Assembly (NCBI GenBank): GCA_937864065.1
Contig: CALMIC010000276.1
Span: forward strand, 1 to 41,226
DNA length: 41,226 nucleotides
DNA from: an uncultured Cellvibrionales bacterium
GTDB lineage: Bacteria; Pseudomonadota; Gammaproteobacteria; Pseudomonadales; UBA7239
Direction of reading: 5' to 3'
In this document: in pieces, positions 4,730 to 41,226 of the stretch
Layout of the letters: every line of letters starts with the position of its first letter
How positions within the stretch are numbered: the stretch's first letter is position 1
Program-made: the position numbers and the translations under genes
Notes under the pieces: generated by a model
What the model was told of the DNA's origin: nothing
Databases searched by the model: none
Seen by the model: only the letters and a program-made list of their open reading frames with translations

Positions 4730-5632
4730 ATGCCAGCCAACGCCAGGGAATTTCCCCTTGTCCAGGCCTACCTTGAGAATGCCTGGCTGGAAAAGGGCCT
4801 GGGCAAACTGACCCTGGCGTCTTACGGCAGTGACCTGTCGCTGTTTGCCCGTTGGCTGGCACAAGATGGCCTATCGCTCGAGCAGGCCACCCGTATAGAA
4901 ATCCAGTCCTACCTGGCCCATTTGCTGGCCAGCGGCGGCAAGGCCAGCTCTACCGCACGCTTCCTGTCCTGCGCACGCGGCTTCTACCGCTTCCTCTTGC
5001 ACGAGAAGCTGGTCAGCCAAGATCCCACTCTCGATATTGATCGACCTCGCCTGGGCAGGCCGCTGCCGAAATTCCTCACCGAAAGCGAAGTGGAAAGACT
5101 GCTGGCGGCACCAGACCCGGAAAATCCCGTAGGCCTGCGTGATCGCGCGATGCTCGAACTCCTGTATGCCTGTGGCCTGCGTATTTCCGAACTCACCAGC
5201 CTGACTATCGGCACCCTGAACCTGCGCCAGGGCGTGGTTCGCGTGATGGGCAAGGGCAGCAAGGAACGCCTGATCCCGATGGGCGAAGAAGCCCTGGCAT
5301 GGCTGACCCGATACAACGCGGAGGCTCGCCCGGTTCTACTGGATTACCAGCCCGCTGAAATCCTCTTTCCCAGCACCCGCGGGCAGATGATGACACGCCA
5401 GACCTTCTGGCACCGGGTCAAGCTGTACGCAAAGCAGGCGGACATCCGCACACCGATCTCGCCCCACACCCTGCGCCATGCCTTTGCCACCCACCTGCTG
5501 AATCGCGGCGCGGATCTGCGTGTGGTGCAGTTACTGCTGGGGCACAGTGACTTGTCCACCACCCAGATTTATACTCATATTGCTAGGGCACGCATGCAGG
5601 CGCTGCATGCACAACACCATCCGCGCGGATAA
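4730..5632 (+). CDS. xerD: Site-specific tyrosine recombinase XerD
   Basis: WLEKGL N-terminus, RDRAMLELLYACGLRISEL, SPHTLRHAFATHLLNRGADLR and LLGHSDLSTTQIYTH motifs, ending HHPRG; conserved rplS-xerD-dsbC context. Confidence 0.97.
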   Translation: MPANAREFPLVQAYLENAWLEKGLGKLTLASYGSDLSLFARWLAQDGLSLEQATRIEIQSYLAHLLASGGKASSTARFLSCARGFYRFLLHEKLVSQDPTLDIDRPRLGRPLPKFLTESEVERLLAAPDPENPVGLRDRAMLELLYACGLRISELTSLTIGTLNLRQGVVRVMGKGSKERLIPMGEEALAWLTRYNAEARPVLLDYQPAEILFPSTRGQMMTRQTFWHRVKLYAKQADIRTPISPHTLRHAFATHLLNRGADLRVVQLLLGHSDLSTTQIYTHIARARMQALHAQHHPRG

Positions 5633-20107: not shown

Positions 20108-20791
20108 TCAGCTGTCTGCCCACATGCGCAGCAGGTTGTGGTAGGTGTTGGTGAGGCGGATGCTGGTATCGCTGTCGCCCTGTTGCTGGCGCAGGTCCAT
20201 GATCGCCATGTCCAGCTCGAACAAGAGCCGGCGCTGGGCATTGTCGCGCACCATGCTCTCCAGCCACATGAACGAGGCGATGCGCGCGCCGCGCGTGACC
20301 GGTTCGACGCGATGGATACTCGAAGACGGATAGAGGATCAGGTCGCCGGCCGGCAACTTGACGCGCTGCTCACCGAAAGTGTCCTCGATGACCAGCTCGC
20401 CGCCGTCATATTCTCCCGGCGCCGACAGGAACAGGGTTGCCGACAGGTCCGAGCGCACGCGGTAGCCGGTGGCAACGTGCGTGCGCATCGCATTATCGGC
20501 ATGGCTGCCAAAAAAATTGCTGCTGCCGCTGTAGCAGTTGAACAGCGGCGGGAAGATCTTTTTCGGCAACGCCGCCGCGTAGAACAGCGCATGACGCAAC
20601 AGCGCATCGAGTACGATTTGCTGCAGGCGCTGTGCCACCGGTGACTGCTCCGGCAGCTGCCGGTTGTTCTTCACCTGCGCCGACTGGCTGCCGGCCGTGG
20701 CACTACCATCAACCCACTCGGCTGTAGCGAGCAGTTCGCGGCAATGCGCGACCTGCTCACTATCCAGCACACACGGCACCTGCAGCAGCAT
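20108..20791 (-). CDS. piuC: Fe(II)/2-oxoglutarate-dependent PKHD-type hydroxylase (PiuC/YbiX)
   Basis: [51 protein letters not shown] and YHNLLRMW motifs. Confidence 0.95.
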
Positions 20792-20803: not shown

Positions 20804-23068
20804 TCAGAACTTGTAATCGACCTTGAGCTGCATCGTGCGCGGCGCACCCGGCAGCACATGGCCACTGTAGACGCTGTCGTAATACTCCTCGTCCAGCAGG
20901 TTGAACAGGCTGAGCTTCACGGCATAGCCCTTCTGGCTGTACTCGACCATCGCATCCCAGCGCGTGTATGAAGGCACAGCTGCCGTATTGGCCTGGTTGT
21001 TGTACCGTTCACCGACACCATCATAACCGAGGCCAGCGCGCCAGCCGCGACCGAAATCCCAGGTATTCCAGATGCTGAAGGTGTAGTGCGGTGTATTGAC
21101 CGGCTCATAACCCTCGTCCGACGTTTTGACACCAGACGCACTGGTATTCGAGTGCTCGTCGATCTCCGCTTCCATATACGCCGTCGCGGCATAGATTTCC
21201 CATTGCGGCAATGGCCGGCCGACAATTTCCAACTCCAGTGCATCGGTATGGCGCCGTCCGGACAGCACGGCGACATCCACTGCCAGGTCGGTGTTGCGCT
21301 CGTTGGTTTTCTCCGAACGCGACAGCGATGTGCGCAATGACAGGTCGCCATCGAGCAATTCCCATTTCGCTCCGATCTCGGTGTTCAGGCTTTTTTCCGG
21401 CGGCACATCGGAGGTGCGGTCGTCCAGCTGGTACAGCTCGGCTGAAGGGTTGAACGAACTGCCGCGCGAGACGTAGTAAGTGCTGTGTGCATCCGGTTGG
21501 TACAGCAGGCCCAGGCGCCAGCTGTTGACGATGTCCTTGCGCTGCAGGTCGCCGTCCGGCGCCGGACGCTGGTAATCATTTTCCGAATGGTCCCAGCGCG
21601 CACCGGTGAGCAGTTTCCACTGTTCATTGAGGCCAATCACATCCTGGAAGTAGAACGCATAACTGTCACCGGTGTAGTAGTTGTAGATGTCCTTGCCCTT
21701 GTACAGGTAACCATCCGGCAAAGCAGGATTGGTATCCGGGCTCCACCACGGTTCAGCATTCGGGTTGGCCACCCCGGCTGGCAGCGGATTGCTCCAGCGC
21801 CGCGCTTTTTCACGCAGGATCTCGTTGCCGAGCAATAACTGGTGCTCGAACGGACCGGTGCTGAACTGTGTGGTGAAATCGGTCTGGCTGGTGATGGTCT
21901 GCTCTTCACCACCGCGACCCTGGTGGCCACGGCGCACCGCCACGATATTGCTGTAGTCCACCGGGTCGGCCACCGATGCCGGTTGGTCAAGGATCAGGCG
22001 CGGCGCCACCGCCCACAGGTCGCGCTTGTAATCCGCTGCGCGCAGTTTTGTCGTCAACTCGGTGTCTTCGCTGAAACGGTGTGTGTAGGTGGCGGTGGTG
22101 ATGTCCGTGTCGTTGCGCTCGTAATCGATGGCGCTCATGCCGTAGTAGGTATCGCGGTCGACCTTCAGCGGCTCACCCTTGAATTCACCCAGCACATCAC
22201 TGCCATTGGCAGCCCGTGTGGCACCATCCGGATCCAGCAGCGGGATGCCCATGTCCGGGATATTGTCTTCCTGCAGGTGGAAATGCGACAGCGTCAGTTC
22301 ATTGTCAGTTCCGATACCGAAGCTGATCGACGGCGCCACACCCGAGCGCTCGCCATGCACCTCATCACGGAAGCTGTCGGTGTCGGTGTACATGCCGTTG
22401 ATGCGAATCGCGGTGGTTTCGCCAATCTGCTGGTTGATGTCAGCTGTGTAACGCTGGTAGCCGTAGCTGCCCTGTGTGGTGCTGACCGTGTTGCGGTCGG
22501 CCAGCAGCGGCTGCTTGCTGACCTGGTTGATCACGCCACCGGTCGAGCCGCGCCCGAACAGCATCGATGATGACCCGCGCAGCACATCGATCTGTTCCAG
22601 GTTGAAGGTTTCGCGATTGTACTGCGCCATGTCGCGCATGCCATCGAGGTAGAGATCGCCGACAGCCGAGTAACCACGAATGGTGATGTTGTCGCCGATG
22701 CGGCCGCCTTCGCCGGCATTGAAGGTAAGGCCAGCGACATTGCGCAGGGCCTCCTTGAAGGTATCGGCATTGCGATCCGCCATCAGCTTGTTGGTGATGA
22801 CCGTGACCGACTGCGGAATGTCCTTGGGTAGCTGGTCGATCTTGCCGACTTTCGTCTTGCCGCCTTGGTAGCTCACCTCGGCCGGCGTGCGGTCAGCCGT
22901 GTCGCGCACATGCACGGTTTCCAGTGTGCTGCTGTCGTCTTCTGCTGCTGAGGCCGGTTCGGCCGGCACTTGCTGCGCCTGCAGCAGCTGGCCGAAAGTC
23001 AGGCCACACAACATGGCACCGAGGGGGAGGATTTTGTGATCATTGAACTTGCGATTGACGGATTTCAT
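20804..23068 (-). CDS. TonB-dependent siderophore receptor, Fiu/PiuA-like
   Basis: Start placed at ATG 23068 after GGAG. TonB box LETVHV, DIPQSVTVI, ALRNVAGLTFNAGEGG, FNLEQIDVLRG.SSMLFGRGSTGGVINQVSK, terminal YKF; followed by piuC. Confidence 0.93.
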   Translation of the reverse strand: MKSVNRKFNDHKILPLGAMLCGLTFGQLLQAQQVPAEPASAAEDDSSTLETVHVRDTADRTPAEVSYQGGKTKVGKIDQLPKDIPQSVTVITNKLMADRNADTFKEALRNVAGLTFNAGEGGRIGDNITIRGYSAVGDLYLDGMRDMAQYNRETFNLEQIDVLRGSSSMLFGRGSTGGVINQVSKQPLLADRNTVSTTQGSYGYQRYTADINQQIGETTAIRINGMYTDTDSFRDEVHGERSGVAPSISFGIGTDNELTLSHFHLQEDNIPDMGIPLLDPDGATRAANGSDVLGEFKGEPLKVDRDTYYGMSAIDYERNDTDITTATYTHRFSEDTELTTKLRAADYKRDLWAVAPRLILDQPASVADPVDYSNIVAVRRGHQGRGGEEQTITSQTDFTTQFSTGPFEHQLLLGNEILREKARRWSNPLPAGVANPNAEPWWSPDTNPALPDGYLYKGKDIYNYYTGDSYAFYFQDVIGLNEQWKLLTGARWDHSENDYQRPAPDGDLQRKDIVNSWRLGLLYQPDAHSTYYVSRGSSFNPSAELYQLDDRTSDVPPEKSLNTEIGAKWELLDGDLSLRTSLSRSEKTNERNTDLAVDVAVLSGRRHTDALELEIVGRPLPQWEIYAATAYMEAEIDEHSNTSASGVKTSDEGYEPVNTPHYTFSIWNTWDFGRGWRAGLGYDGVGERYNNQANTAAVPSYTRWDAMVEYSQKGYAVKLSLFNLLDEEYYDSVYSGHVLPGAPRTMQLKVDYKF

Positions 23069-23084
23069 TGATGGCTCCAACCAT

Positions 23085-23116
23085 AAAAAAACGGGGTGTA
23101 TGGCTGGCTACTCCCG
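23085..23116 (-). terminator. Putative leader terminator (attenuator) in the 5' UTR of the PiuA-like receptor
   Basis: mRNA CGGG-A-GUA-(GCCAGCCA)-UAC-AC-CCCG followed by U7, ending 16 nt before the start codon. The stem is modest and has an internal loop. Confidence 0.55.
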
Positions 23117-23126
23117 GCATGGCGCG

Positions 23127-23142
23127 GGCTGGCTGGCTGGCT
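23127..23142 (-). repeat. (AGCC)4 tandem tetranucleotide box in the receptor leader
   Basis: Plus strand GGCTGGCTGGCTGGCT; a second (AGCC)2 copy lies at 23102-23109. Confidence 0.9.
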
Positions 23143-23151
23143 TTATTGGGC

Positions 23152-23170
23152 GACAATGATAACTATTATT
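23152..23170. promoter_or_regulatory. Fur box 1
   Basis: GACAATGATAACTATTATT, 15/19 match to GATAATGATAATCATTATC; overlaps the -10 (TATCAT, 23156-23161, minus strand) of a TTGAAA-16 nt-TATCAT promoter for the receptor. Confidence 0.85.
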
Positions 23171-23181
23171 ATTTAATTTTC

Positions 23182-23200
23182 AATAATGAGATTCATTATT
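23182..23200. promoter_or_regulatory. Fur box 2
   Basis: AATAATGAGATTCATTATT, 15/19 match to the consensus and a perfect 8-3-8 inverted repeat. Confidence 0.85.
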
Positions 23201-23201
23201 A

Positions 23202-23240
23202 TTTACAGGTGCGGGTTAGTTATATATGATAATCATTCAC
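23202..23240 (+). promoter_or_regulatory. sigma70 promoter of the Cys-rich orphan, overlapped by Fur box 3
   Basis: TTTACA (23202-23207)-17 nt-TATGAT (23225-23230); ATATATGATAATCATTCAC (23222-23240) matches the Fur consensus at 13/19 with an intact ATGATAATCATT core. Confidence 0.65.
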
Positions 23241-23269
23241 ATTTGAGATATCCCCACGAGGCCTTGTCC

Positions 23270-23815
23270 ATGCACACACCCGATACCCAGCCTTATCCCG
23301 TTGACACCACCGTCCATGAACTCGGCGCCAGCGAACGGCTGATGCTGATGACCTTGCGCCTGTGGGCCATGCCCCATCATAGCCCGCACAAGCAGTGCCC
23401 GGATTGGCGCACCGGTCTGTACCAGTGTGGCGCAGGCGATCAGGCATGTGTCGCGATGGACGCACTGATGAACATCCTGCTCTCCTACAGCGAGCGCCTG
23501 ATGGATGTTCGCTGCACCTGCAATACCCGCCTGGGAATCGATGAAGGCTGCTTCCTGCAAATGCTGGCAATGTTGCAGGACAATCGGCATCAGGCAGCGC
23601 AGGCCATTCTGGCCGACTGGGTGCCACTGCCGGTGCAGGGCATGGCCGTACTCTGCGCCATCCATCTGGCAGAAGCACTGCGCAGGGCAGAGGTACTGAT
23701 CCCACTGTTTTCGCGCCAGCCGGCGCAGGTGTTCCGGTTCGAGGAATTCCGGTTCAGGCGCCTGCAGCAGGCCGACGACGCTTGCGCGACCAGATCAGGA
23801 CACCGGTTGCACTGA
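23270..23815 (+). CDS. Hypothetical Cys/His-rich protein, probably Fur-regulated
   Basis: ATG 23270 with GAGG upstream; own promoter and Fur box; helical protein with the motif RCTCNTRLGIDEGCF. The ORF-track start at 23186 lies inside Fur box 2 and is unlikely. Confidence 0.7.
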   Translation: MHTPDTQPYPVDTTVHELGASERLMLMTLRLWAMPHHSPHKQCPDWRTGLYQCGAGDQACVAMDALMNILLSYSERLMDVRCTCNTRLGIDEGCFLQMLAMLQDNRHQAAQAILADWVPLPVQGMAVLCAIHLAEALRRAEVLIPLFSRQPAQVFRFEEFRFRRLQQADDACATRSGHRLH

Positions 23816-24929
23816 AACCGGCCACCGCCAATCCCAGCAGCGAAACGAGAATCCTGCCGGGCAGGCCGGCGATGCGCCCGGAATGCAGCGGGAACTGCGC
23901 CTGCAGGAAGATATCGCCGGCACTGCCCTGTCCTGGCACGGCATCCCCGAGTAAACGGCCATCCTGGCCATCAAGATAAAGCCACGGATGGCCGAGTCCC
24001 GCGCCATGCTCGTCGCCGGCCTCATGGAAACCGACCCCATACAGCCCGAACTCCACTGAATAGAACAGCGCACCGGGGGGCGCCGTCCAGCCCCGCTGCT
24101 GGGCTTCCACTTGCGCCAGCCTGACAGCCTCTTCGCGTGGAATGCGAGGCAAGATCGGGTTTTCTGTTGCGTTCGGCGTTCGCGAAGCAAACGGGCTGGG
24201 TGTGAGATCTGACACCAGCGCGACCAGAGGCCGCGTAACCCGCTGTTCCAGATTCATCGACACCGACGTCACTGCCAACATAAGCAACAGCAACCACAAC
24301 CACACGCCGCCGGAGCGGTGCAGATCAAAGATCACAACGTTGCGCCCCTTGTGCCAGCGGAACGCAAAGGATTTGCGCCAACTGCGACGACGTGGAAACG
24401 AGATCGACAGGGCGATGCCACTGTCGATGAGCCACACGATTGCCACAATGCCCATAAACAGCACGCCTAGCTCGATGCCAAAACCGTCAGGCATGTGCAG
24501 GCTGTAATGCAGCTTATAGAGAAATGGCAACAAGTTTTCGCGCGACAGGGAAACGGCTCCCCACTCACGCGAAGCCTGGACCGCACCGGTCACAGGATTC
24601 AATGCAAGCTGGTTGAAGCCCGTGTCGTACAGCATGCCTGTTGCAGGATTGACCATACGGTCGACAAACACCGTCAACGCATGGCCTTCCTCGTGGTGCA
24701 ACGGCAGGAAACTAATTTGCAGACGCGGATCCGTTGCTTCCAACTGGTTAGCCAGTGCCAGCGGCGACATGCGCTCACCGGGCGTCTCCGAATCGAACAG
24801 TTGCGGATTCAGCCATTCATCCAGCTCGTGATCCCACGAGATCACGGCACCGGTCAGCCCGGCAATAAAAAGAAACACGGCGGTAAACAATCCCAGCCAG
24901 CGATGCAACAACACCAAGACCTGACGCAT
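23754..24929 (-). CDS. PepSY-associated TM helix domain protein (iron-regulated membrane protein)
   Basis: LHRWLGL...AGLTGA, LYKLHYSLH, FDLHRSGG and PLHSG His-containing TM motifs; directly downstream of a siderophore receptor. Confidence 0.92.
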   Translation of the reverse strand: MRQVLVLLHRWLGLFTAVFLFIAGLTGAVISWDHELDEWLNPQLFDSETPGERMSPLALANQLEATDPRLQISFLPLHHEEGHALTVFVDRMVNPATGMLYDTGFNQLALNPVTGAVQASREWGAVSLSRENLLPFLYKLHYSLHMPDGFGIELGVLFMGIVAIVWLIDSGIALSISFPRRRSWRKSFAFRWHKGRNVVIFDLHRSGGVWLWLLLLMLAVTSVSMNLEQRVTRPLVALVSDLTPSPFASRTPNATENPILPRIPREEAVRLAQVEAQQRGWTAPPGALFYSVEFGLYGVGFHEAGDEHGAGLGHPWLYLDGQDGRLLGDAVPGQGSAGDIFLQAQFPLHSGRIAGLPGRILVSLLGLAVAGFSATGVLIWSRKRRRPAAGA

Positions 24930-24939
24930 ACAGCGCTGC

Positions 24940-27072
24940 TCAATATTTCCAGGTCAGTGACGCCATCACATTGCGCGGCTCACCATAATATGCCTGGCTC
25001 CAGTTGAGGCTGTTGAGATATTTCTCGTTGGTCAGGTTGTTCAGGTTCAGCGATACATTCAGGCTTTTTGTGATGTCATATGAGACAAACGCATCCACCA
25101 GCAGGTAACTGTCCTGCCCGTACAGATCATCCGGCCCCTTGACGGTATCTTGCCAATCGAAGCTCGCGCCTACTTTCACCACCTCCAGTTGCGGCAAACG
25201 ATAGCTGAACGCACTGCGCAACATGCGTTTCGGGATATAGGCACGGACGTCAGGGCCTGCGCCGGCATCATCGATATCGAGTTGCGTATAGCCGATAGTC
25301 GCTTCCAGCCCCGGCAACAGCTCACCCGCCAGCTCGGCTTCAAAACCCTGGCTGAAAAAATCATCCGCGGAATACACGGCCTCTGGCGCGCCACTCTCGT
25401 TCGCGACATAGGTATCCCATTCGGCCAGACCGAGATACTTCGCATCGAAAACCGCAAAACTGGCATTGAGGCGATCTTCAAACCAGGCCGCTTTTAGGCC
25501 GATTTCCTTGCTGTCACCCTCTGTGGGTGCCAAGCGTTGCAGATTCCTGTTGCGCTCACCTTGCGGCATGAAGGTCTCGGTGTAACTCGCATAGGCCGAC
25601 CAGGTATCGTTGATGTCGTAGACCAGACCGGCATACGGGATCACGCGGCCGGTTTCTTTCGCCGATTGCGGCACACCGTAGCTATCGCCATCACTTTGCC
25701 AGTTGACCACGCGCGCGCCGGCCATCAGCGCCAGCGGATCAGCAAGGCGGAAACGGCCGGCAAGATACGCGCCAGTTTCCTCGTCCGTGAAATCGGAACC
25801 ATCGCCCGGTGTGGCAAAATTCGGCCGCACAACGTTGCCTTTCCAGTGATTGAAATTGCCAATGGCGGGAAAGCCATAGCCTGGGTCCGTGAATTCATCC
25901 TGCTGCAAATCCGATTGTGCATGGCTCACTCCGGCTACCACCTCGTGTTCCTGGCCGCCCAAGGTGAATTTGCCGATGGTGTACAGATCAAACATATTCT
26001 GTTCTAGTGCAGTCTCGTAGCGGCCCGGCCAGCCGAACATGCCCTGCCCTGTCGACATATCGACAGCACCGAACTGGTAAAAAAGTTCAGATGTATCGTC
26101 ATTATTGACATGACGATAGACAGTCATGAGCTTCCAGTCTTCATTGAAATCATGCACCAGTTCGACAAACAGATTGTCCTCGGTGGTATCCCAGAACGAC
26201 CAGTCAGCCGATGTGCTCATCGATTCATCAAAATCCGTCTGCACACCGTTGCTGTACGTCATTGGCAACGCGCCCCACATCGGGCTGTTTGAGCGCGTGT
26301 CCTCGCGGCTCGCACCCAGCGTTAGCACCGTGTTGTCGGTCATTCTGAAATCGGTCACACCGTACAACACGGTCTTGTCCTGGCCGTAATTATCGAGGTA
26401 AGAACCCTTGGTCTGCTGCACCAGCACGGCGCGACCACCCCAACGGTCGGTGATCGCGCCTGACACATCGCCTTCCAGCCGGTAGTTATCCCACGATCCC
26501 ACTGAAGTCGTTGCAGAAACCTGGAAGGTATCGGTCGGCCGCTTGCGCACCATGTTGACCGTAGCCGATGGATTGCCAGCGCCGGACATCAGGCCCGATG
26601 CGCCACGCACCACTTCCACGCGATCATAGAGCGCCGTGTCGGCATTACCGTAATCGATCGTGTAAGTCAGTGGCACACCGAGCCTGTCCTGCTGGAAATT
26701 GGTGATCTCGAATCCGCGAGCGGTGTAGTACACACGATCCGTCTCGATCTGCTCCACCGTTACACCGGTGGTGCCTTCCAGTACATCGTTGATGCCGGTC
26801 AGCCGGAAATCATCCATGTGAGTACGCGTCACCACCGACACCGATTGCGGCGTCTCGCGCACGGACAGATCCATCTTCGTCGCGGTCTTCATTTCGCCGG
26901 TGGTGTACGACTGCGTCTGCTCAGTTGTTTCGCCAAGGCCGGTCGCAGTGACCGTCACGACCTCCAACTGACGGACTGCCGCATCATCGGCAGCCTGCGC
27001 TTGGACAGCGCAGATTGCCAACGCCAGTGCACTGGCAGGAAACAGGAAATTCTGGCGAAAAAAAACATTCAT
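24940..27072 (-). CDS. TonB-dependent siderophore receptor, FhuE/FpvA-like (no N-terminal signalling extension)
   Basis: Signal peptide, TonB box [61 protein letters not shown] and YGEPRN motifs, terminal WKY. Confidence 0.94.
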   Translation of the reverse strand: MNVFFRQNFLFPASALALAICAVQAQAADDAAVRQLEVVTVTATGLGETTEQTQSYTTGEMKTATKMDLSVRETPQSVSVVTRTHMDDFRLTGINDVLEGTTGVTVEQIETDRVYYTARGFEITNFQQDRLGVPLTYTIDYGNADTALYDRVEVVRGASGLMSGAGNPSATVNMVRKRPTDTFQVSATTSVGSWDNYRLEGDVSGAITDRWGGRAVLVQQTKGSYLDNYGQDKTVLYGVTDFRMTDNTVLTLGASREDTRSNSPMWGALPMTYSNGVQTDFDESMSTSADWSFWDTTEDNLFVELVHDFNEDWKLMTVYRHVNNDDTSELFYQFGAVDMSTGQGMFGWPGRYETALEQNMFDLYTIGKFTLGGQEHEVVAGVSHAQSDLQQDEFTDPGYGFPAIGNFNHWKGNVVRPNFATPGDGSDFTDEETGAYLAGRFRLADPLALMAGARVVNWQSDGDSYGVPQSAKETGRVIPYAGLVYDINDTWSAYASYTETFMPQGERNRNLQRLAPTEGDSKEIGLKAAWFEDRLNASFAVFDAKYLGLAEWDTYVANESGAPEAVYSADDFFSQGFEAELAGELLPGLEATIGYTQLDIDDAGAGPDVRAYIPKRMLRSAFSYRLPQLEVVKVGASFDWQDTVKGPDDLYGQDSYLLVDAFVSYDITKSLNVSLNLNNLTNEKYLNSLNWSQAYYGEPRNVMASLTWKY

Positions 27073-27085
27073 GGCGCAACACCTC

Positions 27086-27163
27086 GGCAGTCAGATCTTG
27101 TATGAAAGATGGCTGGCTGCCTGGCGCTGCAACAATGGCAGGGAAGCTAGGTGGCTTGCGGTT
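27086..27163 (-). promoter_or_regulatory. Structured 5' leader of the FhuE-like receptor containing the AGCCAGCCAU box
   Basis: Same 10-mer as in the other receptor leader (plus strand ATGGCTGGCT at 27109-27118 and 23100-23109). A 13-bp interrupted stem at 27086-27121 abuts the SD GAGG (27082-27085). Confidence 0.6.
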
Positions 27164-27204
27164 GTTCAAACATCCTTATCGGCTTGTCCTGCAAAGCAAT
27201 TAAA

Positions 27205-27363
27205 TTATTTAGTGAGAATCAGCTTGTTCTCGCGCGTGATGCGCAGCAGGTAGCGCTGGCCTGCGTGTTCGATACAGAGCGTGCGCGCCCCACGGAACAA
27301 CTGTTCCGAGGTCACACTGAGCATGGCATCGGCAGCCACAGGCGGCAGTTTGTCACTGGCCAT
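27205..27363 (-). CDS. hemP: Hemin uptake protein HemP/HmuP
   Basis: SEQLFRG.R...IEH.GQRY.LRITRENKLILTK signature; ATG 27363 overlaps the end of exbD. Confidence 0.93.
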   Translation of the reverse strand: MASDKLPPVAADAMLSVTSEQLFRGARTLCIEHAGQRYLLRITRENKLILTK

Positions 27364-27799
27364 CGGCAACTCCCGCAGCCTGCACGCCACCGCCGGGCAA
27401 CATGACAAAGCCCATCTTGCTGACTCCGGCCTGTTTCACTTCGGCCATCACCTGCGCCACGCGCTCGTAGCGCACATCCTTGTCCGCCATCAGGTGCAGT
27501 TCCGGCTGCGGCTGGCGCGCTGCAATCTCGGCCAGCCGCAACTGCAGGCTATCGTCAGCCATGCTTTCTGTGTTCCAGCTCAATCGCCCATCGGCGGCAA
27601 TGGCGAGGCTCACCACCTCCGGTTTCTGCTCCGTCACACTACCTGCCGCTTTCGGAAGGTTAACCGTAACCGATTGCGTGATCAGTGGCGCACAGACGAT
27701 GAAGATAATCAGCAACACCAGCATCACATCGACCAGCGGCGTCATGTTGATTTCCGCCATCGGCTGCGCATTACCCTGTTCAAAACTGCCGAAAGCCAT
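27353..27799 (-). CDS. exbD: Biopolymer transport protein ExbD
   Basis: AEINMTPLVDVMLVLLIIF and ADKDVRYERV motifs. Confidence 0.96.
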   Translation of the reverse strand: MAFGSFEQGNAQPMAEINMTPLVDVMLVLLIIFIVCAPLITQSVTVNLPKAAGSVTEQKPEVVSLAIAADGRLSWNTESMADDSLQLRLAEIAARQPQPELHLMADKDVRYERVAQVMAEVKQAGVSKMGFVMLPGGGVQAAGVADGQ

Positions 27800-28512
27800 C
27801 AGCGCTTCTCCACCGCTTTCAGCGCCGGCTGGGGCTGCGAGGAACCCAATGTGAAATACATCAGCAGGTCGTGCGCAAAGCCGTCCAGGTCGGCCACCAC
27901 CAGCCGCTGCACACGGTTGAACGCGTTGTAACCCAGCACGGCAGGAATGGCGACGAACAGCCCAATCGCCGTCATGATCAATGCCTCACCGACCGGGCCA
28001 GCCACCTTGTCCAGCGTAGCCTGGCCGGTCATGCCGATCGCCGCCAGTGCGTGGTAAATCCCCCACACCGTGCCGAACAGGCCCACGAACGGCGACACCG
28101 ACCCGATCGAGGCGAGGAACACCTGGCCGCGCTCGAGATCCGCCGAGGCGCGGTTGAGCGCCTGGCGCAAGGCGCGGGTGACGATTTCGGTGAGCGACAG
28201 CTGCGAATCGAGATGCGCCTGCATGCCGGAGCGGTGGCTCTGGTAGTGCTCCACGGCATTGCGGCCGTGTTCCACCAGCAGGCGAAATGGTAGCATTCGC
28301 GCCAGCTCTTGCAGGCCGGCGTCAAGATCCTGCGCCTGCCAGAAGCGGTCGAGCGCACCGCTGTTGCCATGCTGCCACCATGCCATCTGCACGCTTTTGG
28401 CGAGGATGATCGCCCAGCTCACCACCGACATCGCCAGCAGCAGGATCAGCACCGCGTGCGACACCGCATCACCCTGCTGCCAGAAAGTGACCAGATCCAG
28501 ATTGAATGTCAT
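27799..28512 (-). CDS. exbB: ExbB (MotA/TolQ/ExbB proton channel)
   Basis: Start ATG 28512 after GAGG. LASIGSVSPFVGLFGTVWGI and VGEALIMTAIGLFVAIPAV motifs. Confidence 0.96.
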   Translation of the reverse strand: MTFNLDLVTFWQQGDAVSHAVLILLLAMSVVSWAIILAKSVQMAWWQHGNSGALDRFWQAQDLDAGLQELARMLPFRLLVEHGRNAVEHYQSHRSGMQAHLDSQLSLTEIVTRALRQALNRASADLERGQVFLASIGSVSPFVGLFGTVWGIYHALAAIGMTGQATLDKVAGPVGEALIMTAIGLFVAIPAVLGYNAFNRVQRLVVADLDGFAHDLLMYFTLGSSQPQPALKAVEKR

Positions 28513-28528
28513 TGCCTGTTTACCTCGT

Positions 28529-29239
28529 TCATTCCTGCAGGCTGAACTGGATCGGTACTTCCACCCAGCTCGCCACCGCTGTCTCACCCTGCCGGGCGGG
28601 GACAAAACGCCATTCTGCCGCTGCCTTGCTGGCAGCCTCGTCCAGCCGCGCAAAGCCGGACGACTTCTTCACCTCGACGGCCAACGGCTTGCCGTCGGCC
28701 GACACCTGCACCCGCAACAGTACCTTGCCCTGTTCCCCGAGCCGGCGCGACAGTGGCGGGTAACCCGGCGCTGGGTTGTTCAGGTAAGCCGCGTCGTAGC
28801 GGGCTGCCGTGACCGGTGCCGGCGCCGGTGGTGCGGCAGACGGCGCTGCCGCACTGGCTGCCGGGGCTGGCGCTGCGGGCGCCTGCTCGACCTGGGGCTT
28901 CGTGACCGGCTTCGGCGGTTGCACCTTCTTCGGCGGTTTCTTCACCACCTTGTGCTGCTCGGCCATCTCATCAGGGCGCAAGGACTCAGGCTGCGGCGGC
29001 TCAGGTGGTGGCGGCACTGCCATCGCTGGTTGCTGCACCTGCTCACCGGCCGGCGGTGCAAGCGTCAGCAGATCCACCGTCACCGTTTGCTCTACCCCCA
29101 ACACCAGCGGCACGGGCGCGGGGCGAGACAGCCACCAGACCAGTGCGCCAGCATGCAGGCCAGCCGACAACAGCACTCCGACCAGCACAGCCAACTGGCT
29201 GCGGGTGGCGGGCGACCTGTCAACCGGAAAACCTTGCAA
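28529..29239 (-). CDS. tonB: Energy transducer TonB
   Basis: TTG start; TM segment with S..LH; Pro-rich spacer; C-terminal YLNNPAPGYP...GEQGKVLLRV...SSGFARLD...WRFVPA. Confidence 0.95.
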   Translation of the reverse strand: MQGFPVDRSPATRSQLAVLVGVLLSAGLHAGALVWWLSRPAPVPLVLGVEQTVTVDLLTLAPPAGEQVQQPAMAVPPPPEPPQPESLRPDEMAEQHKVVKKPPKKVQPPKPVTKPQVEQAPAAPAPAASAAAPSAAPPAPAPVTAARYDAAYLNNPAPGYPPLSRRLGEQGKVLLRVQVSADGKPLAVEVKKSSGFARLDEAASKAAAEWRFVPARQGETAVASWVEVPIQFSLQE

Positions 29240-29266: not shown

Positions 29267-29296
29267 GATAATAATTATCATTAGCGAAAAAATCAA
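29267..29296 (-). promoter_or_regulatory. Fur box and sigma70 promoter of the tonB-exbB-exbD-hemP operon
   Basis: GATAATAATTATCATTAGC (29267-29285) is a 16/19 match to the Fur consensus and overlaps a minus-strand TTGATT-17 nt-TATTAT promoter. Confidence 0.88.
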
Positions 29297-39943: not shown

Positions 39944-41226
39944 TTACTGCACACCGACCTGCAATTCGAGTTCGACGGTCTTGCCGCCGGCAACATTGTC
40001 CTCGCCGGCGATCTGGCGGCTTTCGCCGGTCAGCTTGAGCCCACGCGCTTTCGCATCGGCATGCAATTGCGCAAACGCGAGCGCGACACCGTCCGGTGAG
40101 CCCTGGTACTGGCGCACAGCGCACTTGAAGCCCTTGTCACGCACCAGCTGGTAACGGCCAGACGGCGGCGGGTTGCCGGTGACCGGGAAGCCGAAACGCA
40201 CGCGGATTTTTTCTGCGCCCTGCTCCAGCGGCTCCGGAAAGATGATGTGCATCGGGCCGCTGATCTTGCCGCCGTTCTTCACAATGGTGATGCCTAGCCT
40301 TGTTGCCAGGCCGACCATCTGGCTCGACATTTCGTCTGCCGTGAGCTTGTAGTCCCCCAGGTACAGCTGGCGGGATTCGGTGGTCTTGATCTCCAGCGCC
40401 GCCGACGGGTTGCCCTGGATATTCGCCAGTGCGGCCGTATCAAGCGCAGCGCTGGCCGGCGCCGACTCCACTGCCGCCGGCTGCGGCGATCCCGAATCTT
40501 CCGCCGGCACCGCAGCAGCGACCTCTTGTTCAGTTTCCGTTTCGGCTGCACCGGCATCCGCAGGCGCTGTGCTGCGCTGGCTGTCCGGCATCGCCGCCGC
40601 AAAGATCGAGCTGGTACCCGCAGAGGAGCACGGCCCGGCCACGCCGGCTTTCTCGCGCTCGGTGGCCGGCTCCGCTTTCATGAAAGCCAGCCATTGCGCG
40701 GCATCGCCGGCCCCGCCGACCAGCGTCGCATTGATGAAGGAGCGGCGCGCGAGTTCATTGTCGCCGAGCTTGAGCTGGCTGATGCCGAGCAGCAGGTTCG
40801 CGCGCGCCACCAGGCGATCGGGCAGGCCGGCCTCACAGGCATCCAGCACCAGCTGCTGCATCGGTTGCCACTGCTGCTTTTCCATCTGCAACTGCGCCAG
40901 GTGCAGCTGCAATTCGACATCGTTGCTGCCACTGGCAGCCTTGGCCAGTGCCGCTTCAGCTTTCTCGCGCTCACCCGCCTGCATCCACAGGCGGAACAGG
41001 CGGTCATTGATCTTGCTACCCGATTTCAGCCGGCCACTGGCAATGGCCTCTTCCAGCACCCGCGCACCACGGCCGGGAATATTGTTGACGGAATAGAGAT
41101 CGCTCAGCAGCAGGATGTCCTGTTCGCGGAACGGGATCCCCTTTTCCCAAGCCAGCGCCATCACATCCAGTGCCTGTGCATGCTTGCCGCCTTTCAGGTA
41201 CAGCGACACCCACTGCTGCCACAATT
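39944..41226 (-). CDS. Tetratricopeptide-repeat protein with a C-terminal GyrI-like domain; 5' end outside the window
   Basis: TPR-like helices (WQQWVSLYL..., A.LLLGISQL.LG..E.AR..F), an Ala/Glu/Pro linker, then a GyrI-like pattern (GPMHIIF...RFGFPV...CAVRQYQGSPDGV..AFAQL...GESRQ...ELQVGV). Confidence 0.7.
   Translation of the reverse strand, partial: LWQQWVSLYLKGGKHAQALDVMALAWEKGIPFREQDILLLSDLYSVNNIPGRGARVLEEAIASGRLKSGSKINDRLFRLWMQAGEREKAEAALAKAASGSNDVELQLHLAQLQMEKQQWQPMQQLVLDACEAGLPDRLVARANLLLGISQLKLGDNELARRSFINATLVGGAGDAAQWLAFMKAEPATEREKAGVAGPCSSAGTSSIFAAAMPDSQRSTAPADAGAAETETEQEVAAAVPAEDSGSPQPAAVESAPASAALDTAALANIQGNPSAALEIKTTESRQLYLGDYKLTADEMSSQMVGLATRLGITIVKNGGKISGPMHIIFPEPLEQGAEKIRVRFGFPVTGNPPPSGRYQLVRDKGFKCAVRQYQGSPDGVALAFAQLHADAKARGLKLTGESRQIAGEDNVAGGKTVELELQVGVQ

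Follow-up and report, generated by a model that had tools for sequence, protein, structure and literature searches.

The leaders of two genes for siderophore-type TonB-dependent receptors in an uncultured Cellvibrionales bacterium (assembly GCA_937864065.1, contig CALMIC010000276.1, positions 1 to 41,226, a stretch of 41,226 nucleotides here called the window) carry, judged by their sequence, a known regulatory element, the HmuP-responsive element (HPRE). In each leader a direct repeat of AGCCAGCC(A) lies in the sense of the mRNA, 30-40 nt before the start codon and with a hairpin between the two boxes, and this element probably belongs to hemP, whose single copy in the genome adjoins one of the two leaders, as a post-transcriptional layer of control under Fur. 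The genome assembly analysed comprises 2.57 Mb and is 91% complete, and all of the genes concerned are on the minus strand. The two elements are laid out as follows.

23100..23142, minus strand: HPRE of leader 1, with box 1, (AGCC)x4, at 23142..23127, the hairpin CCCG/CGGG at 23128..23113 and box 2, AGCCAGCCAU, at 23109..23100
27109..27157, minus strand: HPRE of leader 2, with a degenerate box 1, AAGCCACC, at 27157..27150 and box 2, AGCCAGCCAU, at 27118..27109

The 10-mer AGCCAGCCAT that the two leaders share lies on the minus strand at 23109..23100 and at 27118..27109, leaving gaps of 31 and 36 nt to the start codons of receptor 1 (23068..23066) and receptor 2 (27072..27070), exactly as an earlier, sequence-only reading of this DNA had described. 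The layout given in that reading, with an upstream AGCC box, a small hairpin of unrelated sequence and a conserved box, is also present in both leaders, and RNAfold predicts a small hairpin between the boxes in each (in leader 2, CUGC/GCAG at 27141..27127 is nested in CCUG/CAGG at 27142..27120). In the predicted transcript the leader 1 element extends from about +7 to +50, and its boxes lie downstream of the predicted -10 hexamer. Against 0.20 copies of AGCCAGCCAT expected, the window holds three exact ones; the third (40685-40694, plus strand) falls within a coding-like frame, as do 17 of the 22 copies in the genome by a crude GC-phase test. Among the five receptor genes with a plug domain in the genome, only receptors 1 and 2 have the boxes. 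Covariance model R1 gives the leader 1 element 37.2 bits, but this sequence belonged to the R1 seed; its second-best match in the window, at 18.2 bits, is the leader 2 element, which stood outside the seed alignment. Seven other R1 matches in the genome were inspected (C236, C172, C126, C132, C119, C13 and C123), and all of them lie in long open frames.

There is a negligible chance, in our view, that the boxes are a coincidence or a neutral AGCC microsatellite without function. The motif AGCCAGCC is frequent in this GC-rich genome (342 copies) and the order has long (AGCC)n tracts in other genomes, but none of 100 shuffled sequences reached three copies of AGCCAGCCAT, both leaders have the same layout and distance, and the results on hemP adjacency, spacer folding, covariation and receptor 1 homologues given below also argue against it. 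The (AGCC)n tracts, of 9 to about 15 copies, are intergenic (L153 in G093, 1479-1530; L154 in G095, 1495-1530; G191 contig C27, 22060-22119); they match the box pattern trivially and look like plain microsatellites.

The sequence-only reading left open whether its AGCC boxes equal the published HmuP-responsive elements. They are the HPRE, because they match the sequences quoted for Chromobacterium violaceum chuR and vbuA in PMC9131926 (de Lima 2022), which, like PMC9241770 and PMC11442138, is cited here from excerpts. The chuR element is given there as CCCGCAAGCCAGCCGACAGCCAGCCAGCG (CAAGCCAGCC...CAGCCAGCC), at -26 from the ATG, and a second HPRE, GCCAGCCAGACG..., stands at -49 from vbuA, the gene of a siderophore (viobactin) receptor. 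Both mRNAs are reduced in a mutant lacking chuP, and ChuP, a HemP-family protein, binds haem and showed no DNA binding in an electrophoretic mobility shift assay (PMC9131926). The HPRE is described as a direct repeat (PMC9241770), and both leaders contain such a repeat of a AGCCAGCC-type motif. In both it is in sense orientation within a 5' untranslated region or an intercistronic leader (the transcription start being predicted), and hemP/hmuP is present in the same genome. The haem receptor that stood downstream in the first description of the element is missing here, where both receptors are of siderophore type; a haem-receptor target is dispensable, as the vbuA case shows (PMC9131926). The leaders hence add an instance to a known system instead of revealing a new type of switch: the HPRE itself and the action of a HemP-family protein on a non-haem siderophore receptor (ChuP on vbuA) are already published. 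Over the leaders, Rfam 15 returned only chance-level rows at E <= 10, and in 10 other loci none of its families covered the elements at E <= 0.1. Reportedly, Amarelle, Koziol and Fabiano (2019, Biometals 32:273) linked the motifs to predicted RNA secondary structure, and their elements are said always to have been upstream of haem-receptor genes.

Comparison with the systems already described brings out what is shared and what differs. The HPRE of Ensifer meliloti shmR is likewise a AGCCAGCC-type direct repeat within the leader of a gene for a TonB-dependent receptor, the genome also encodes HmuP/HemP, and control is positive and post-transcriptional (PMC9131926, PMC9241770), but the target there is a haem receptor, whereas both targets here are of siderophore type and no haem receptor was found. 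In C. violaceum, according to the same excerpts, chuP-chuR resembles leader 2 in having a HemP-family gene upstream of the receptor and an intercistronic HPRE with no promoter of its own, and vbuA resembles leader 1 in having its HPRE on a distant catecholate-type siderophore receptor gene, with both chuR and vbuA repressed by Fur. That bacterium has a full haem-uptake operon, chuPRSTUV, whereas here hemP follows tonB-exbB-exbD and neither HemS nor a haem-type receptor was found; moreover, unlike those of the window leaders, the chuR element as quoted is short in the spacer and lacks a hairpin. In Burkholderia multivorans a small HemP is required for expression of the receptor operon hmuRSTUV, and the target includes an inverted repeat (Sato 2017, as related in other papers); HemP is reported there as a DNA-binding transcriptional activator, whereas the evidence here points to RNA.

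Comparative support comes from the association of the boxes with hemP, which the sequence-only reading had proposed as a check on its motif. We scanned 3 kb on either side of 80 hemP loci from public genomes and found box pairs in 41 of them, in 57 clusters of which 53 are on the hemP strand; the density is 0.71 per hemP locus, compared with 0.11 per 6.1 kb in the genome of the window, and the elements are always in the sense of the downstream gene. Twenty of the 57 clusters precede an open reading frame (ORF) that matches the window receptors by phmmer, and two more precede receptors recognised by Pfam. The leader directly after hemP contains a pair of CAGCCAGCC boxes in four relatives, of which three belong to the same genus and one to the same order. 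In the genus, leader-type elements are confined to hemP-positive genomes; G003, G007 and G009, which are hemP-negative, have pattern matches only within long open frames. Homologues of receptor 1 (E <= 1e-90) were found in 15 of 301 sampled genomes of the order, and the 220 nt upstream of each were checked for two boxes: with one further locus cut by a contig end and left unjudged, these are present in five of six hemP-positive genomes and in none of eight hemP-negative ones, so that motif and hemP do co-occur. The one-sided Fisher test for this association gives p ~0.003, which overstates the support because related genomes are not independent.

Over whole genomes the association is enriched but noisy, with a strict two-box pattern in 27 of 43 hemP-positive and 77 of 258 hemP-negative genomes; of 30 strict-pattern loci examined, five front a receptor or hemS gene. 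Applied to 151 genomes of the order, R1 gave at least six matches, three of them AGCC-rich repeat tracts, and as 41 candidates were scored per genome we kept this result out of the co-occurrence evidence. Adjacency, strand bias and co-occurrence together support a function of the boxes as an element that is linked to hemP.

An alternative is that a factor other than HemP reads the boxes (an iron-regulated small RNA with a GGCUGGCU seed, a ribonuclease or another protein) and that hemP is a mere neighbour in an iron island. Indeed, receptor 1 homologues occur in 3 of 13 genomes of the genus, only in hemP-positive ones, and the hemP-receptor 1 unit therefore looks like an accessory island. In two of these genomes (G005 and G010) the receptor 1 orthologue directly follows hemP; in the window the two are separated by receptor 2, a PepSY-associated transmembrane protein (PepSY_TM), a hypothetical ORF and a second Fur promoter. 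As hemP, the receptor 1 homologue and the boxes form one module within the genus, their co-occurrence could reflect shared inheritance. However, the association spans different families of the order and receptor genes distant from hemP, and genetic dependence on a HemP homologue has been published for the HPRE-bearing chuR and vbuA (in the excerpts of PMC9131926), and we regard this alternative as very unlikely.

The second line of evidence is the hairpin between the boxes. In 17 of 33 hemP-linked elements with exact boxes the minimum free energy (MFE) of the spacer beats that of shuffled sequences (p <= 0.05; median p 0.028), compared with 1 of 27 chance matches to the pattern (median p 0.49). 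The stems are unrelated in sequence, for example CCAACACC/GGUGUUGG, CCGGG/CCCGG, CUAGC/GCUAG and CUGC/GCAG. We aligned 27 elements, among them leader 1 of the window, with MAFFT and without fitting to any structure. A 5-bp helix in this alignment has 65.1% of its cells paired, compared with 47.3 +/- 3.1% in shuffles and at most 53% in slid controls, and a covariation score of 0.452, compared with 0.201; none of 500 shuffles was as high in either measure. All five pairs of the helix change on both sides, and G-U pairs occur. The aligned consensus reads CAGCCAGCCA-[stem-loop]-(G)U-AGCCAGCCA, and seven leaders (six from Methylobacter and one from Methylocucumis, by record title) display compensatory changes between close relatives. 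These results support the conservation of a hairpin with covarying stems between the boxes, which points to recognition as RNA in a family whose mode of action, on DNA or RNA, is disputed.

Other work has favoured DNA, and an activation at that level would have HemP, alone or with Fur, bind the double-stranded palindrome between the boxes and activate transcription. HemP/HmuP proteins are called transcriptional activators in B. multivorans and Bradyrhizobium, and the binding region in B. multivorans is given as an inverted repeat ending in CAGCC (both in the excerpts of PMC9241770 and PMC11442138); the spacer hairpins of the elements analysed here are also palindromic as DNA. The B. multivorans repeat as quoted was absent from the 154 loci examined. 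Against action on DNA, leader 2 lacks a promoter-like site on which activation could work, the boxes of leader 1 are downstream of the predicted -10 hexamer, the orientation of the element is always the sense of the gene, and the stems tolerate G-U pairs, which would be mismatches in DNA. ChuP gave no shift with DNA (PMC9131926), and no recognised DNA-binding fold is found among the matches to our HemP model. We consider activation through DNA unlikely, and read the HPRE as an element probably acting at the RNA level because the leader 1 boxes are downstream of a predicted promoter overlapped by Fur-box-like sites and because leader 2 is internal to an operon and without a promoter-like site.

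How the element acts on its mRNA is a separate question, to which the sequence-only reading had given a specific answer, attenuation by alternative hairpins. As a transcription attenuator, the leader would form either hairpin A (an anti-terminator) or a downstream hairpin B (a terminator or a sequestrator), never both, and HemP would direct the choice to A. The predicted downstream structures are listed here.

23075..23107, minus strand: predicted hairpin B of leader 1, in which CCAGCCAUA (23107..23099) pairs with UAUGGUUGG (23085..23077), present in both the MFE and the centroid structure of RNAfold
27070..27130, minus strand: predicted long hairpin of leader 2, in which GCAGCGCC, GGCAG, CAG and AUCUU pair with AAGAU, CUG, CUGCC and GGUGUUGC

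An inhibitory fold downstream of the boxes is thus predicted in both window leaders. In leader 1, UAUGGUUGG overlaps the Shine-Dalgarno sequence GGAG (23078..23075). In leader 2, the long hairpin is predicted by RNAfold to cover box 2, the Shine-Dalgarno-like GAGGUG (27085..27080) and the AUG. Its MFE is -33.9 kcal/mol on 102 nt (z -2.67, with 1 of 200 shuffles as good), and it takes the 3' arm of hairpin A together with box 2 and so competes with hairpin A. These features, along with the U7 tract after box 2 in leader 1 and the ability of box 2 to pair with GG(C/U)UGG in the receptor 1 leaders of the window and of G010, are what an attenuator has in its favour. However, leader 1 is predicted to form hairpins A and B together, so nothing switches there and the proposed mutual exclusion holds for leader 2 only; the U7 tract lies in the loop of hairpin B, and the fold of the whole leader has a z of -0.26. 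No terminator-like site was found in 22950-23400 or in 26950-29000, and transcription attenuation is not supported in either leader region. As a separate observation, short-spacer box pairs followed by a run of 6-8 T occur elsewhere (L072:3172-3210, L076:3138-3180, L091:810-850 and L131:3208-3245).

Nor is the inhibitory hairpin general. Over 52 elements the duplex between box 2 and downstream sequence averages -8.81 kcal/mol compared with -8.20 in shuffles, with 2 of the 52 at p <= 0.05, and only 25 of the 40 elements examined have a start site less accessible than with permuted boxes, a weak trend (4 of 40 at <= 0.05). In leader 1 accessibility is 0.384 for the native sequence and 0.443 with permuted boxes (percentile 0.025); the G010 orthologue shows the same effect and the G005 orthologue does not. 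Box 2 can pair with GG(C/U)UGG beside the Shine-Dalgarno sequence in two of three receptor 1 leaders of the genus (window and G010, not G005). We therefore regard the attenuator as quite unlikely. Local sequestration of the ribosome-binding site, as modelled here, is a reasonable hypothesis for this genus, because leader 1 and G010 show the effect and the wider set of elements and G005 do not. Elsewhere, L111, L126, L130 (in both of its elements), L133 and L136 keep a downstream UUUGGAUGG(C/U)(A/G) able to pair with box 2; in L130, where the start codon is in view, it lies just upstream of that codon.

Several points weigh against reading the two leaders as HemP-dependent RNA elements. Box 1 of leader 2 is degenerate, and the genome-wide E value with R1 is 0.22, which is not significant. 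The leader is colinear with the HPRE downstream of hemP in a genome of the same genus (G012), and because AGCCAGCC stands there opposite AAGCCACC, we read AAGCCACC as a decayed first box. The spacer hairpins of the window itself are weak, with 4-bp stems, and shuffled sequences fold as well as its box-to-box segments (z -0.29 and +0.33). The receptor 1 homologue of G158, a hemP-positive genome, lacks boxes, and none of 29 other loci with receptor 2 homologues, six of them from hemP-positive genomes, has two boxes; since receptor 2 homologues elsewhere are without them, the leader 2 element accompanies the hemP operon rather than the receptor family. The strict pattern also turns up in the 77 hemP-negative genomes mentioned above, where the four matches inspected were all in long open frames, and release of the ribosome-binding site is not general across elements. 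Sato 2017 and Escamilla-Hernandez 2012 are reported as describing activation at the DNA level (via the excerpts of PMC9131926, PMC9241770 and PMC11442138), and we found no literature report of RNA binding by any member of the HemP family. The same literature search returned no covariation-supported HPRE hairpin and no HPRE before non-receptor genes, although Amarelle 2019 and Sato 2017 may cover parts of this.

The HemP protein itself belongs to PF10636 (67.2 bits, with a cut-off of 25), and its relatives of known structure by sequence are 2JRA, 2LOJ and 4YNX, of which 2JRA, titled as domain-swapped, and 4YNX each have two chains and show dimers. An AlphaFold model built from 46 sequences (pLDDT 84.9; the monomer was used in the fold searches) matches 4YNX with Z 5.6 and a root-mean-square deviation of 1.2 over 40 residues, and 2JRA with Z 3.4; searches with Foldseek against the PDB and with VIA-align against 48,161 chains gave clear matches to 4YNX, 2JRA and 2LOJ only. 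H33, Y38 and K47-K52 (the C-terminal KLILTK) are invariant in the 46 sequences; the His and Tyr may be haem ligands, and contacts with RNA may come from the basic C-terminal strand. CsrA/RsmE offers a possible mechanistic parallel without shared membership, as a small dimer acting on two single-stranded motifs that flank a stem near the ribosome-binding site, but CsrA recognises GGA and usually represses, whereas HemP is an activator, and CsrA did not appear among the matches to the HemP monomer in either search.

We propose that under low iron Fur would leave both promoters, as their Fur-box-like sites suggest, and that HemP would then be made and bind both boxes on the RNA, with the hairpin setting the boxes side by side and probably one box for each subunit of a HemP dimer. 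By analogy with ChuP on chuR and vbuA, the level or the translation of the receptor mRNA would rise; in the window, folding predictions suggest that the bound state may also stop box 2 from pairing beside the ribosome-binding site. The outcome would be a second, post-transcriptional layer under Fur acting on two siderophore-type receptors in this genome. In outline this is the model of the sequence-only reading, whose HemP-linked RNA layer in the leaders under Fur stands; its attenuator and CsrA details are unsupported, and the system it describes was already published.

The genes and predicted control sites of the locus are listed here from the upstream end.

29267..29285, minus strand: Fur-box-like site upstream of tonB, with 17/19 matches to the E. 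coli Fur consensus
28529..29239, minus strand: tonB (PF03544 TonB_C, E 2.3e-20)
27799..28653, minus strand: exbB (PF01618, E 3.5e-33)
27353..27799, minus strand: exbD (PF02472, E 1.7e-32)
27205..27363, minus strand: hemP (PF10636), 52 aa from the ATG at 27363
24940..27072, minus strand: receptor 2, a FauA/FhuE-like siderophore-type TonB-dependent receptor (TIGR01783, 278.5 bits, cut-off 223.5)
23754..24929, minus strand: PepSY_TM protein, downstream of receptor 2 (PF03929, E 1.9e-57)
23152..23240, no strand assigned: AT-rich divergent promoter region with three Fur-box-like sites and two divergent promoter-like sites
23152-70, 23182-200 and 23222-40: Fur-box-like sites with 15/19, 15/19 and 13/19 matches (same E. 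coli consensus)
23202-23230, plus strand: predicted promoter
23183..23178 (-35) and -10 ending at 23156, minus strand: predicted promoter of receptor 1
20804..23068, minus strand: receptor 1, a Fiu/PiuA-like catecholate-type TonB-dependent receptor (TIGR01783, 269.5 bits, cut-off 223.5)
20108..20791, minus strand: PKHD/PiuC-type 2OG-Fe(II) hydroxylase, next after receptor 1 (PF18331, E 1.3e-19; PF13640, E 1.3e-12)

On these predictions hemP comes fourth in an operon under Fur control, tonB-exbB-exbD-hemP, whose transcript would continue through leader 2 into receptor 2. The Fur-box-like site at 29267..29285 is likely its operator, and no promoter-like site was predicted between tonB and receptor 2, including the gap between hemP and receptor 2. 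The earlier claim that hemP lies immediately upstream of leader 2 is borne out, as this gap, leader 2 itself, measures 132 nt; an alternative upstream TTG start of hemP is possible at 27408. Receptor 2 scores 518.6 bits with FauA and 469.4 bits with FhuE, both under the equivalog cut-offs, and receptor 1 scores 334.7 bits with Fiu, under the cut-off of 686. Both pass TIGR01783 and both fail the haem-receptor family (65 bits for receptor 2 and 76 bits for receptor 1, with a cut-off of 317), in agreement with their earlier description as apparently non-haem receptors. No haem-type receptor was found in the 91%-complete genome, where the best score is 193 bits under the same cut-off, and HemS was not found there either, though an incomplete assembly could have missed both. 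PiuC-type hydroxylases are the usual partners of Fiu/PiuA receptors.

The region 23152..23240 is predicted to be an iron-regulated promoter for receptor 1 and, divergently, for a conserved hypothetical ORF. This ORF (23270-23815, plus strand, 181 aa) diverges from receptor 1 behind a Fur-box-like promoter and has no match in Pfam or NCBIfam; in the ESM Atlas it groups with clusters of conserved hypothetical Pseudomonadota proteins (feature score 0.94, structure TM ~0.7), and DUF6628 is a weak lead. The leader of a third receptor gene of this genome (G000 contig C262, ~4890-5150, minus strand) looks like a cobalamin riboswitch by eye.

Beyond this genome, nine HPRE-fronted receptors of other genomes divide into four that pass haem-receptor cut-offs, two of Fiu siderophore type and three that pass none; one of the two Fiu-type receptors is from Vogesella by record title (L101). 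HPRE-type box pairs also precede non-receptor genes, namely those of TonB, an Fe2+ transport protein (PF10634), an OprB porin, three DUF2325 proteins and HemS, and the HemP regulon therefore looks wider than receptors. These non-receptor loci are as follows.

L105:3113-3912
L117:3127-3740
L132:3135-4644
L088:3155-4529
L095:3198-4526
L098:2872-4655
L015:1500-2601

Although the HPRE is stated to be absent from Gammaproteobacteria in the excerpts of PMC9241770, we find it in records labelled Methylobacter, Sedimenticola, Thiodiazotropha and Ectothiorhodospiraceae. Cultured bacteria that carry it include Methylotenera and Azospira strains. Clear box-hairpin-box leaders are seen in L111, L126, L130, L133, L136 and L145, from the gammaproteobacterial methanotrophs Methylobacter and Methylocucumis by record titles.

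The identification settles the nature of the boxes: with it the claim of a new switch falls away and the earlier idea gains a published footing, to which the comparison adds that the element tracks hemP gene by gene. The novelty is modest, and lies in targets of siderophore type only, with no haem receptor or HemS found, in a hemP within a tonB-exbB-exbD operon and in an element outside Rfam. A curated covariance model of the element would aid the annotation of iron regulons in Beta- and Gammaproteobacteria. Control by HemP appears to reach well beyond haem receptors, to siderophore receptors and, elsewhere, to TonB and Fe2+ uptake genes. We suggest tentatively, at somewhat less than even confidence, that the HPRE is a structured box-hairpin-box RNA motif, missing from Rfam, that defines a HemP regulon not concerned with haem as such, and that a HemP encoded with tonB-exbBD controls only siderophore-type receptors in this bacterium, possibly as an internal sensor of haem or iron status.

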